Shown here piece by piece: positions 14,503 to 25,309 of a stretch of DNA of 64,000 nt. The stretch is taken from NCBI RefSeq assembly GCF_058153355.1, contig NZ_CM177019.1; one strand, written 5' to 3'. Below the pieces are notes generated by a model. That model saw only the letters and a program-made list of their open reading frames with translations. It made no database searches and had not been told where the DNA came from. Both the position numbers and the translations under genes were made by a program. The number at the start of each line of letters is the position of its first letter. Position 1 is the stretch's first letter.

Positions 14503-15807
14503 TTAATGCAACTTCAAACGTGGACGGATAACGCGGTTAATACTCCCCACCAGCATCATTAATCCGGTTTTAAAGTAACCATGCAGCGCAATCTGATGCA
14601 TTCTGTATAGCGAGATGTATACAAAGCGCGCAATTCGTCCTTCAATCATCATTGAGCCGCGCGTCAGGTTACCCATCAGGCTACCAACGGTGGAGAAATT
14701 CGACAACGATACCAGCGAACCGTGATCTTTATACTGATAATTTTTCAGCGGCTTACCGTTCATCTGCGCCAGAATGTTGTTCATTGCGCAGGTTGCCATC
14801 TGGTGTGCGGCCTGCGCACGCGGCGGAACAAAGCCCCCTTCCGGACGCGGGCATGACGCGCAGTCGCCAATAGCGTATATGTCTGGATCGCGAGTGGTTT
14901 GCAGCGTCGGTTCCACCACCAGCTGGTTGATACGGTTGGTTTCAAGACCACCGATATCTTTCAGGAAGTCTGGCGCTTTGATCCCGGCTGCCCACACCAT
15001 CAGATCAGCCTCAATATATTCACCATCTTTAGTGTGCAGGCCGCCTTCATCAGCACTGGTGACCATGGTTTGCGTCAGCACGCGAACGCCAAGTTTCGTT
15101 AACTCATTATGGGCCGCAGCAGAAATACGTGGCGGCAACGCAGGCAAAATACGTTCGCCCGCTTCTACCAGCGTTACGTTCAGGGCTTCGTTGGTCAGAC
15201 CTTTATAACCGTAGCTGTGCAGTTGCTTGACCGCGTTGTGCAATTCTGCGGAGAGTTCTACACCCGTCGCGCCGCCGCCGACAATCGCAATGTTCACTTT
15301 ACCATTCGCGCCCAGGTTGGCGGAGTATTTCAGGAACAGATTCAGCATCTCCTGGTGGAAACGACGCGCCTGATGCGGGTTATCGAGGAAAATGCAGTTC
15401 TCTTTGACTCCTGGCGTATTGAAATCGTTAGAGGTGCTGCCCAACGCCATTACCAGGGTGTCATAGGCGATTTTACGTTCCGGAACCAGCAGTTCACCTT
15501 TCTCGTCGCGCAGTTCTGCAATAGTGATTGTTTTCGCTTCACGATCAATATCAATGACGGAACCCAGCTGGAACTGGAAACCATGATTGCGCGCATGGGC
15601 CAGATAGCTCAACGCATCGACGCCTTCATCAAGCGAGCCAGTCGCCACTTCGTGCAGCAGCGGTTTCCACAAGTGGCTGTGGTTACGATCGACCAGCGTA
15701 ATTTTGGCTTTTTTCTTGCGTCCCAGCTTATGTCCCAGCTGTGTCGCCATTTCCAGCCCACCAGCACCGCCGCCGACAATCACAATTTTTTTCAATGGCG
15801 TAGTCAA
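14503..15807 (-). CDS. ndh: NADH:quinone oxidoreductase II (NDH-2)
   Basis: Two GxGxxG FAD/NAD folds; start assigned to TTG (MTTPLKK, 434 aa) after AAGGGGG RBS; an in-frame ATG lies 9 codons upstream. Confidence 0.9.
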
Positions 15808-16128
15808 CGTGACCCCCTTAAATTTATTAACCAATTGTTAACTAATAGTTATTAATATAGCTCTTAATTAACAACAGGTTACAGCAATGAAAATGTTCTT
15901 CGTTATTGAGAATAACATGAATGGTGCATTGGTCATACCAAAATTGATGTTAATCAAGTTTTGTTGCTGAAAAGATAGGCTGATTTACCGGATGAGATCA
16001 AAAAATACAGCTTATTGTTTATTATTCAAACGAATTCAGGAGGGTGAGACGTATATGGAGGGCGTTTGGTAGATACTGTTATGGCCTGCAAGTTTTTTTC
16101 TACCCCGGTTTCCCAGATTGCAGGCATG

Positions 16129-17430
<1,302 letters not shown>

Positions 17431-20933: not shown

Positions 20934-21293
20934 TTACAGACCTTTATGCGCCAGCATTGGTCCCAGCGGACGGCCACCCAACAAGTGCATATGGATGTGA
21001 TACACCTCTTGTCCGCCATGGCGATTGGTGTTCATGATCAGACGATAGCCATCTTCGGCAATACCTTCTTGCTCAGCAATTTTTGCCGCTACGGTGATCA
21101 TGCGTCCCAGCGCCTGCTCATGCTCAGCAGACACGTCGTTCACAGTCGGAATGAGGATATTTGGAATGATCAGAATATGCGTTGGCGCTTGCGGCGAAAT
21201 ATCGCGAAACGCCGTTACCAGATCATCCTGGTAGACGATATCGGAGGGGATCTCACGACGAATAATTTTGCTAAATATAGTTTCTTCTGCCAC
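20934..21293 (-). CDS. hinT: Purine nucleoside phosphoramidase (HIT family)
   Basis: HIT motif [12 protein letters not shown] start (MAEETIF, 119 aa). Confidence 0.85.
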
Positions 21294-21626
21294 GACATTT
21301 TCCTTTTTCAAATAGCCATGCGTTGCGCCATGCTACGCCGCGCCATACTGCGAGTATAGAGTATGGTCGAGTTAAACCTGCTCTTTCAACCTTAACTCAC
21401 GATTTCTTAAGCAAAAAATCGTTTTGCTGCCGTATATATCGCCATTATTCCCATTTCTGCCTGCGAATTCGCTGAAAAGACATTCTTTGTTTGGTTTACA
21501 CGTCAAATATGAATGCGTATATTTCTCATTTGCATTTGCATGCAAAATTATTCGCACACTAAATATAACCGCTCATCATCCTCCTCCTGCATGAGCCTGA
21601 CGACAACATAAACCAAGAGATTTCAA

Positions 21627-23816
21627 ATGCTTTCAACACAATTTAACAGGGATAATCAACATCAAACCACCTCCAAACCGTCACTACTTGCCGGTTGCAT
21701 AGCACTGGCACTCTTACCTTCCGCCGCTTTTGCTGCACCAGCCACTGAAGAAACGGTGATTGTTGAGGGTTCCGCCACTACTCCAGTTGATGACGAAAAT
21801 GATTACAGCGTAACGTCTACCTCTGCGGGTACCAAAATGCAGATGACTCAACGTGATATTCCTCAGTCGGTCACTATTGTTAGTCAGCAGCGGATGGAAG
21901 ATCAGCAGTTACAAACGCTGGGCGAAGTGATGGAAAACACGCTGGGGATCAGCAAAAGTCAGGCGGATTCCGATCGTGCTCTTTATTATTCCCGCGGATT
22001 CCAGATCGATAACTATATGGTTGATGGTATCCCCACCTATTTTGCATCGCGCTGGAATCTGGGCGACGCACTTTCTGATATGGCACTGTTTGAACGCGTA
22101 GAAGTAGTGCGTGGCGCGACAGGACTCATGACCGGTACGGGTAATCCATCTGCGGCAATTAATATGGTTCGAAAACACGCGACCAGTCGTGAATTTAAAG
22201 GCGATGTTTCAGCAGAATACGGTAGCTGGAACAAAGAACGGTATGTGGCGGATTTACAAAGTCCACTCACCGAAGATGGTAAAATCCGCGCGCGAATTGT
22301 CGGCGGCTACCAGAATAACGACTCATGGCTGGACCGCTACAACAGTGAAAAGACCTTCTTCTCCGGCATTGTTGATGCTGATTTAGGCGATCTTACGACG
22401 CTTTCAGCCGGTTACGAATATCAGCGCATTGATGTTAATAGCCCAACGTGGGGCGGTTTACCGCGCTGGAATACTGATGGCAGCAGCAACAGTTACGATC
22501 GCGCACGCAGTACCGCACCTGACTGGGCGTACAACGATAAAGAGATCAACAAGGTCTTTATGACCCTCAAGCAGCGGTTTGCTGATACCTGGCAAGCGAC
22601 ACTGAATGCCACCCACTCCGAAGTCGAATTTGACAGCAAAATGATGTATGTCGATGCCTATGTAAACAAAGCGGATGGTATGCTGGTTGGGCCATACAGT
22701 AATTATGGACCTGGCTTTGATTATGTCGGCGGCACCGGTTGGAACAGCGGCAAACGTAAAGTTGATGCGCTGGATTTGTTCGCTGACGGTAGTTATGAAT
22801 TGTTTGGTCGTCAGCACAATCTCATGTTTGGTGGCAGTTACAGCAAACAAAACAATCGTTACTTCAGTTCATGGGCCAACATCTTCCCGGATGAAATTGG
22901 CAGTTTCTACAACTTTAATGGCAATTTCCCACAAACCGACTGGTCACCACAGAGTCTGGCGCAGGACGATACCACACATATGAAATCGTTATATGCTGCC
23001 ACTCGTGTCACCCTTGCCGATCCGCTGCATCTGATCCTCGGCGCACGTTATACCAACTGGCGGGTTGATACGCTGACTTACAGCATGGAGAAAAACCACA
23101 CCACGCCTTATGCTGGTCTGGTGTTTGACATTAATGACAACTGGTCGACCTACGCCAGCTATACCTCTATTTTCCAGCCGCAAAATGATCGTGACAGTTC
23201 AGGCAAATATCTGGCTCCAATCACCGGTAACAACTACGAGCTGGGTCTGAAATCGGACTGGATGAATAGCCGTCTGACCACCACGTTAGCCATCTTCCGT
23301 ATTGAGCAGGATAATGTAGCTCAGTCCACCGGTACACCTATCCCCGGCAGCAACGGCGAAACCGCCTATAAAGCGGTGGATGGGACAGTCAGTAAAGGTG
23401 TGGAATTTGAACTCAACGGCGCAATTACCGACAACTGGCAGCTGACGTTTGGCGCAACGCGCTATATTGCAGAAGATAACGAAGGAAACGCCGTTAATCC
23501 TAATCTGCCACGCACCACGGTTAAAATGTTCACCAGCTATCGGTTGCCTGTCATGCCAGAGTTGACGGTCGGCGGTGGTGTTAACTGGCAAAATCGCGTG
23601 TATACCGACACCGTGACACCGTATGGCACCTTCCGCGCCGAGCAAGGTAGCTACGCGCTGGTGGATCTCTTCACCCGCTACCAGGTGACGAAAAACTTCT
23701 CGTTACAGGGGAACGTCAATAACCTGTTCGACAAAACCTACGATACCAACGTGGAAGGTTCTATCGTCTACGGCGCACCGCGTAATTTCAGCATTACCGG
23801 CACGTATCAATTCTGA
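21627..23816 (+). CDS. fhuE: TonB-dependent outer-membrane receptor for ferric coprogen/rhodotorulic acid
   Basis: 729 aa, signal peptide, plug and beta-barrel, terminal F. Confidence 0.9.
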   Translation: MLSTQFNRDNQHQTTSKPSLLAGCIALALLPSAAFAAPATEETVIVEGSATTPVDDENDYSVTSTSAGTKMQMTQRDIPQSVTIVSQQRMEDQQLQTLGEVMENTLGISKSQADSDRALYYSRGFQIDNYMVDGIPTYFASRWNLGDALSDMALFERVEVVRGATGLMTGTGNPSAAINMVRKHATSREFKGDVSAEYGSWNKERYVADLQSPLTEDGKIRARIVGGYQNNDSWLDRYNSEKTFFSGIVDADLGDLTTLSAGYEYQRIDVNSPTWGGLPRWNTDGSSNSYDRARSTAPDWAYNDKEINKVFMTLKQRFADTWQATLNATHSEVEFDSKMMYVDAYVNKADGMLVGPYSNYGPGFDYVGGTGWNSGKRKVDALDLFADGSYELFGRQHNLMFGGSYSKQNNRYFSSWANIFPDEIGSFYNFNGNFPQTDWSPQSLAQDDTTHMKSLYAATRVTLADPLHLILGARYTNWRVDTLTYSMEKNHTTPYAGLVFDINDNWSTYASYTSIFQPQNDRDSSGKYLAPITGNNYELGLKSDWMNSRLTTTLAIFRIEQDNVAQSTGTPIPGSNGETAYKAVDGTVSKGVEFELNGAITDNWQLTFGATRYIAEDNEGNAVNPNLPRTTVKMFTSYRLPVMPELTVGGGVNWQNRVYTDTVTPYGTFRAEQGSYALVDLFTRYQVTKNFSLQGNVNNLFDKTYDTNVEGSIVYGAPRNFSITGTYQF

Positions 23817-23875: not shown

Positions 23876-25309
23876 TTAGTGGTTACGGATGTACTCATCC
23901 ATCTCGGTTTTCAGGTTATCGGATTTAGTACCGAAAATCGCCTGAACACCAGAACCAGCAACCACTACGCCCGCTGCGCCCAGTTTCTTCAGGCCAGCCT
24001 GATCCACTTTAGACACATCAGCAACGCTGACGCGCAGACGGGTAATACATGCGTCGAGGTTAGTGATGTTTTCTTTACCACCAAACGCAGCAACCAGAGC
24101 CGGTGCCATTTCGCTGGTACCTGTCGCTTTTGCATCATCAGTCGCGTCTTCACGACCCGGCGTTTTCAGATCCAGTGCTTTAATCAGCACGCGGAAGATG
24201 GTGTAGTAAACAATTGCATAACCGATACCGACGATCGGGAACAGCCACAGTTTGCTGCTGTTACCAGACAGAACGATGAAGTCGATCAGACCGTGCGAGA
24301 ACGACGTACCGTCACGCATCCCCAGAAGAATACAGATTGGGAATGCCAGGCCTGCCAGAATCGCGTGGATGATGTACAGGATCGGCGCAACGAACATGAA
24401 GGAGAACTCGATCGGCTCGGTGATACCGGTCAGGAACGAGGTCAGCGCCGCGGAGATCATAATACCGCCCACTTTCGCGCGGTTTTCTGGTTTAGCAGAG
24501 TGCCAGATAGCAATTGCGGCAGCTGGCAGACCGTACATTTTGAACAGGAAGCCACCAGACAGTTTACCCGCAGTCGGGTCACCCGCCATATAACGCGGAA
24601 TGTCGCCGTGGAAAACCTGACCTGCAGCGTTGGTGTATTCACCAATCTGCATCTGGAAAGGTACGTTCCAGATGTGGTGCAGACCAAACGGTACCAGGCA
24701 ACGTTCGATGAAACCGTAAATGCCAAACGCAACTACCGGGTTCTGGTAAGCAGCCCACTGAGAGAAGGTCTGGATTGCAGAACCAATAGGCGGCCAAATG
24801 AAGGACAGCACAACGCCAGTAAAGATGGCAGCCAGGCCTGAAATGATCGGCACAAAGCGTTTACCGGCAAAGAAGCCAAGATACTCAGGCAGCTTAATAC
24901 GGTAGAAACGGTTAAACATGTACGCTGCGATCGCACCGGAGATAATCCCCCCGAGTACGCCAGTATCCGCCAGGTGTTTAGAGGCGATTTCTTCAGCAGG
25001 TAAATGCAGTACCAGTGGCGCAACCACGGCCATGGTTTTAACCATGATGCCATAGGCAACAACTGCGGCCAGCGCGGATACGCCATCGTTATTGGTAAAG
25101 CCGAGGGCGACACCGATCGCAAAAATCAGTGGCATGTTTGCAAAGACGGAACCGCCTGCTTCTGCCATAACATGCGATACAACGGCGGGCAGCCAGCTGA
25201 AATTCGCGGAACCGACGCCCAGCAGAATACCTGCGATAGGCAGTACGGATACCGGCAGCATCAGCGATTTACCGACCTTTTGCAGGTTAGCAAATGCATT
25301 CTTAAACAT
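23876..25309 (-). CDS. ptsG: Glucose-specific PTS enzyme IICB
   Basis: 477 aa; EIIC membrane domain plus EIIB with CITRLR. Confidence 0.95.

Follow-up and report, generated by a model that had tools for sequence, protein, structure and literature searches.

The A+T-rich stretch upstream of Escherichia coli fhuE is very probably the core promoter overlaid by a Fur operator

The window, by which we mean the whole stretch of 64,000 nucleotides that was analysed, comes from an Escherichia coli chromosome, and the region of concern here separates hinT from the siderophore receptor gene fhuE. The genes and the ribosome-binding element at this locus, with strands given relative to the window, are the following.

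20934-21293, minus strand: hinT, divergent from fhuE (RefSeq annotation of strain 2017-02-2CC and of K-12)
21294-21626: hinT-fhuE intergenic region, 333 bp
21615-21619, plus strand: Shine-Dalgarno-like AAGAG, 7 nt 5' of the ATG, read from the sequence
21627-23816, plus strand: fhuE coding sequence, 729 aa (open reading frame list; in RefSeq, ferric-rhodotorulic acid/ferric-coprogen receptor FhuE)
23876-25309, minus strand: ptsG (RefSeq annotation of strain 2017-02-2CC and of K-12)

Of 5,426 complete E. coli genomes, 5,425 have a match to the interval 21250-21700, with 100% identity in strain 2017-02-2CC over the 451 bases compared and about 96.5% in K-12. Most matches lie between 95 and 99% identity and, since just two of the 5,425 genomes reach at least 99%, the window appears to derive from a relatively uncommon E. 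coli lineage. Elsewhere in the window, at 16073-17351, a 1,279-bp insertion of the IS621 family (IS110-like) sits in a REP element between the start of ndh and the stop of ycfP. It carries a transposase reading frame of 326 aa on the minus strand (16178-17158; NCBIfam 'IS110 family RNA-guided transposase', E = 3e-75). The otherwise near-identical strain NZ_AP027764.1 has no copy at this position; strain 2017-02-2CC lacks this copy, so the window does not come from that strain itself. Copies of the element are present in 2,244 of the 5,426 E. coli genomes, and the median number among these carriers is 5.

A preliminary description of this DNA had drawn attention to an A+T-rich stretch upstream of fhuE, and the 51-mer that it quoted is indeed found exactly, at 21505-21555. 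The A+T content of this segment is 70.6%, against a window mean of 48.5%, and just 0.9% of all 51-mers in the window attain this value; the whole span from 21480 to the start codon (21480-21626) has 63.3% A+T, which places it in the top 1.6% of the window. The hexamer repeats ascribed to the stretch held up in part. There is a tandem CATTTG-CATTTG at 21528-21539, but hexamers of the Fur type, NAT(A/T)AT, are undistinctive: the best run of three hexamers scores 10/15, and that score is reached by 1.6% of window positions. The description in terms of hexamer repeats does not identify the operator.

A scan for sigma-70 promoter elements gave a single match on the plus strand, TTTACA-17-TATATT, from which the following elements were placed.

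21495-21500, plus strand: -35 hexamer TTTACA (consensus scan 10/12, 17-nt spacer)
21518-21523, plus strand: -10 hexamer TATATT (consensus scan), on which the main Fur site described below is exactly centred
21528-21534, plus strand: putative transcription start zone, placed by promoter geometry only, 5-11 nt past the -10 box

By itself the scan is not above chance, 2 sites having been found against 1.5 expected. Both hexamers are conserved across genera: when 40 upstream regions, drawn from about 15 genera, are aligned, TTACA of the -35 box is at least 95% conserved, and the -10 box TATATT is present in at least 95% of the sequences, differing only in Mangrovibacter and Rahnella. The literature searched, outside which the original fhuE paper of 1990 lies, yielded neither a start-site mapping nor a DNase footprint for fhuE.

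Several further elements of the intergenic region are recorded here as observations. A sequence scan of the region found no terminator-like site, and as candidates for a leader peptide or an antisense reading frame the open reading frame list offered only implausible TTG- or GTG-initiated frames that start upstream of the promoter. There is perfect 7-nt complementarity (GCAUUUG/CAAAUGC) between 21532-21538, at the predicted 5' end of the mRNA, and 21624-21630, in the start-codon region; this pairing is present in the minimum-free-energy fold and is unconserved outside Escherichia. In the part of the region nearer to hinT, two repeats can be seen by eye: GAGTAT-A-GAGTAT, which is direct (21351-21363), and GAGTTAA/TTAACTC, which is inverted (21369-21375 and 21392-21398). 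These repeats, at 21351-21398, lie around a minus-strand promoter predicted for hinT, TTGAAA-18-CATACT, at 21389-21360.

The upstream sequence was also compared across enterobacteria. One scan of a collection of species-representative genomes yielded 54 fhuE loci, encoding FhuE proteins of 98% to 55% identity and distributed over Escherichia, Citrobacter, Klebsiella, Raoultella, Kluyvera, Enterobacter, Leclercia, Lelliottia, Buttiauxella, Mangrovibacter, Rahnella, Pantoea and others. For 39 orthologues and the window, 40 sequences in all, 220 nt upstream of fhuE were aligned with MAFFT after correction of the start codons. Among these 39 orthologous loci of about 15 genera, upstream conservation is limited to GTTTACA at the -35 position and to one block.

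21512-21537, unstranded: conserved block AATGCGTATATTTC(T/G)CATTTGCATT, 26 bp, most columns at least 95% identical

Outside Escherichia the flanks of the block, the segment GCATGCAAAATTATTCGC and the 5' untranslated region cannot be aligned, although AAGG or AAGAG recurs at the Shine-Dalgarno position in the fhuE orthologues. The segment GCATGCAAAATTATTCGC, which forms the 3' part of the A+T-rich 51-mer, and the rest of the sequence up to the ATG are unconserved and outside the site. The preliminary description had spread the operator over 147 bp, 21480-21626, and this extent does not stand, the operator occupying about 33 bp at 21506-21538. Its placement over the promoter is supported: the operator extends across spacer, -10 box and putative start of the fhuE sigma-70 promoter.

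The preliminary description had further suggested control by Fur, with only a partial match to the consensus by eye, and the partial nature of the match is borne out. The classical 19-bp Fur consensus GATAATGATAATCATTATC has no match with three or fewer mismatches anywhere in the 64-kb window; its best matches in the intergenic region, at 21509 and 21515, agree at 11 of 19 positions, and 317 positions in the window do as well or better. We then scored the region, as had been proposed, with a Fur position weight matrix. It was built without fhuE from 13 intergenic regions of K-12 MG1655 that precede genes well known to be under Fur control (fepA-fes, fepD-entS, fepB-entC, fhuA, fiu, cirA, fecI, fecA, tonB, exbB, ryhB, sufA and fhuF). 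A palindromic Gibbs sampler run on these regions returned AATGATAATCATTATCATT, which is the Fur box with its register displaced by 3. The matrix is credible because training sites lie within the DNase I footprints published for fepA-fes, cirA and tonB (Chen et al. 2007, PMC2189734, Table 3) and within the fiu ChIP-exo peak; when each training site was left out in turn the sites scored 6-25 bits, mostly 16-25. Within the intergenic region the matrix finds two sites, both inside the conserved block.

21512-21530, unstranded: main Fur site AATGCGTATATTTCTCATT, 13/19 to AATGATAATCATTATCATT, 11.7 bits, rank 2 of 63,982 window positions
21518-21536, unstranded: second, weaker Fur site TATATTTCTCATTTGCATT, 7.0 bits, offset 6 bp downstream

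The main site is the best match in the intergenic region, and when its score is added to that of its partner 6 bp downstream the pair ranks first in the window; overlapping Fur dimers at a 6-bp spacing are an arrangement set out by Chen et al. 2007 (PMC2189734). In dinucleotide shuffles of the intergenic region, 4.9% reach 11.7 bits (p = 0.049) and 2.2% reach the score of the pair. Sequence alone is modest evidence for Fur, and the matrix by itself would not be decisive. Its top score in the window, 12.1 bits, falls inside ndh (15778), where the K-12 list has no ChIP-exo peak, which shows that at such scores the matrix lacks specificity. That match belongs to a cluster over the first codons and the promoter region of ndh, 15778-15904, with scores of 12.1 (15778), 10.6 (15886), 10.1 (15838) and 9.5 bits (15841); the K-12 ChIP-exo list has no peak there, and the matches are probably false positives that arise from A+T-richness. 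A further Fur-like sequence lies in codons 7-13 of fhuE (21645-21666), where AACAGGGATAATCAACATC agrees with the classical consensus at 13 of 19 positions, above any match in the promoter, and scores 7.1 bits; it has no separate peak in the K-12 ChIP-exo list.

The orthologues add weight to the position of the site, since the aligned 19-mer is the top Fur-matrix match of the 220-nt upstream region in 31 of 39. With one exception, all natural variants of the block raise the Fur score: the AATGAG... form of Buttiauxella and Pantoea ananatis scores 15.7 bits, the ...TATTAT... form of Rahnella 17.1 bits and that of Mangrovibacter 15.1 bits. The exception is T21526G, found in 14 of 39 orthologues (Citrobacter, Enterobacter mori, Leclercia, Lelliottia and related genera), which lowers the Fur score to 7.7 bits while producing a perfect AATGCG-N7-CGCATT palindrome, AATGCGTATATTTCGCATT, and which is equally conserved. 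In several loci with the G variant an extra Fur-like site of 14.6-14.7 bits adjoins or runs across the fhuE start codon, 86-110 nt past the block (L011, L014, L015 and L016 from Citrobacter, L032 from Leclercia and L037 from Lelliottia; for example AATATTAATAATTATCAAG and TTTGATAATGTCTTTCATT). This extra site may compensate for the weaker promoter site of the G variant.

Published work on K-12 adds to the case for Fur. The K-12 sequence is identical to the window over 21504-21537, an interval that contains the -10 box, the two Fur sites and, except for its final base, the whole ChIP-exo footprint given below; the nearest differences are single bases at 21501, 21503, 21538 and 21541-21542, with others further out. 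A genome scan by Chen et al. 2007 (PMC2189734) with a cut-off of 10 bits placed a 12.4-bit fhuE Fur site at NC_000913 coordinate 1160880. The fhuE ATG lies at 1160774 in the genome version used there, that is, at 1161551 in version 3 minus an offset of 777 that was checked on the fiu and fepA sites, and coordinate 1160880 then corresponds to 21521 in the window, the centre base of the 21512-21530 19-mer. Gao et al. 2023 (PMC10164565, Dataset 2) report a Fur ChIP-exo peak for fhuE in MG1655, P31, at 1160863-1160895, seen in iron-replete cells only and marked as also found by Seo et al., together with a W3110 peak, P41, at 1163221-1163233, again iron-replete only. Both peaks were transferred to the window from the positions of the fhuE ATG.

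21506-21538, unstranded: equivalent of MG1655 peak P31, converted from the fhuE ATG positions
21522-21534, unstranded: equivalent of W3110 peak P41, via the W3110 fhuE ATG at 1163128

In iron-replete MG1655 the log2 ratio of fur deletion to wild type for fhuE is 5.02, or about 32-fold (p = 1.8e-113; Gao et al. 2023, PMC10164565, Dataset 3), with 9.8 and 6.9 units in the wild type against 288 and 275 in the deletion strain; the ratio is 6.15 in W3110 and ranges from 3.0 to 8.4 across eight strains, and expression of the neighbouring hinT is unchanged on fur deletion (PMC10164565). A fhuE promoter-lacZ fusion is likewise repressed by Fur (Beauchene et al. 2015, PMC4676285). The proposed Fur control of fhuE is therefore supported by the matrix match, the K-12 ChIP-exo peaks, derepression on fur deletion and the lacZ fusion; the iron-dependent occupancy and the derepression come from K-12, in which the operator is identical. 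A second K-12 peak, P32 (1161165-1161198), is labelled hinT and is present in both iron conditions (Gao et al. 2023, PMC10164565). It maps to approximately 21203-21236, inside the hinT coding sequence and outside the intergenic region, and the nearest matrix match is at 21165-21183, with 6.65 bits.

We conclude, with a probability of roughly 0.9, that the A+T-rich stretch is the fhuE core promoter overlaid by a Fur operator at about 21506-21538. The fhuE operator has already been described for K-12 and is a case of ordinary E. coli iron regulation. The likely course of events is as follows. Two overlapping 19-bp Fur sites, at 21512-21530 and 21518-21536, cover the spacer between the -35 and -10 boxes, the -10 hexamer and the putative start. 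When iron is sufficient, dimers of Fe2+-Fur bound over approximately 21506-21538 would shut out RNA polymerase, presumably by the steric exclusion of the standard Fur model (Chen et al. 2007, PMC2189734). Under iron shortage Fur would leave the DNA and the coprogen/rhodotorulic-acid receptor would be made.

Among known Fur sites the fhuE operator is, by score, one of the weaker. The closest comparison is with the K-12 fhuE operator itself, for which the locus, the gene order hinT-fhuE-ptsG and the operator sequence are the same as in the window, the only differences being single bases in the flanks. The footprinted sites of the tonB and fur promoters have a similar information content, 11.5 and 12.3 bits against 12.4 bits for fhuE in the model of Chen et al. 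2007 (PMC2189734), and with the matrix built here tonB, left out of training, scores 13.3 bits against 11.7 for fhuE. In all three cases the site overlaps the core promoter. Unlike these two, fhuE combines a weak match with a strong response, about 32-fold on fur deletion. The strong Fur boxes of fepB-entC, ryhB, fhuF, fecI and cirA, each scored with that site omitted from training, reach 21-25 bits, compared with 11.7 bits for fhuE. They share with it the palindrome, the TG...CA ends of the 7-1-7 core (TGCGTATATTTCTCA), the 6-bp overlaps and the position at the -10 box, whereas the centre of the fhuE site is TATATT and that of the strong boxes is ATAATCATTAT.

The invariance of the block nevertheless invites other readings. 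The most substantial is that another dimeric regulator reads the 6-7-6 palindrome AATGCG-N7-CGCATT, besides Fur or instead of it, which would explain why a poor match to Fur is held nearly invariant across genera. Conservation is far tighter than the degenerate Fur matrix demands, and in the 14 of 39 orthologues in which the block is a perfect palindrome both half-sites stray symmetrically from the Fur consensus, with CG for AT, at a Fur score of 7.7 bits. To our knowledge no known regulator motif fits this palindrome, and the ARG box, NagC/Mlc, NsrR and Zur motifs do not. Against such a regulator, ChIP-exo in K-12 puts Fur itself on the block, deletion of fur alone gives the derepression of about 32-fold, and every other natural variant shifts towards the Fur consensus. 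Moreover, the palindrome is centred on the -10 hexamer, so that the overlapping constraints of polymerase and Fur already account for much of the invariance. The block is most simply understood as the product of polymerase (at the -10 box and the start region) and Fur acting on the same bases, and we regard a further regulator as unlikely. Also improbable is the wider proposition that invariance and symmetric palindrome together reflect more than the shared constraints of polymerase and Fur, namely either such a regulator or a deliberately low-affinity Fur site, one that sets a distinct iron threshold for the uptake of foreign (fungal) siderophores.

It might also be argued that the stretch contains no operator but is a plain A+T-rich promoter, made up of spacer, -10 box and perhaps an UP-like element, and that the dependence of fhuE on Fur is indirect. 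The modest match to Fur (shuffle p about 0.05) would agree with this, as would the tendency of A+T-rich promoters to draw Fur-matrix matches, exemplified by the ndh promoter region at 15838-15886. Fur ChIP-exo peaks, however, lie directly on the block in two K-12 strains under iron-replete conditions only, the predicted site and the measured peak agree to the base, and conservation runs past the -10 box through 21537, which would not be expected for promoter function alone; we consider an indirect effect very unlikely. An RNA feature of the leader of about 97 nt, whether a regulatory hairpin at 21571-21596 or a target for a small RNA, is largely refuted and scarcely credible, for although the minimum-free-energy fold contains a hairpin of 6 bp (GCTCAT...ATGAGC, loop CCUCCUCC) and the 7-bp pairing of 21532-21538 with 21624-21630, the folding energy is no better than that of shuffles (z = -0.25), a search of 21000-22000 gave no Rfam match at E <= 1, and the leader is unconserved outside Escherichia.

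A Fur operator on the fhuE core promoter thus being the preferred reading, the strain would carry the standard, intact iron/Fur switch for its coprogen/rhodotorulic-acid receptor, which matters little beyond correct annotation. The more general lesson is that a Fur operator may be real and act strongly and yet appear unconvincing by consensus (11/19) and borderline by matrix, and that it is phylogenetic footprinting together with ChIP data, rather than the matrix score, that identifies the operator of fhuE. The tight conservation of a weak site across genera provides a defined 26-bp target for studying how the affinity of Fur is tuned to the individual promoter.
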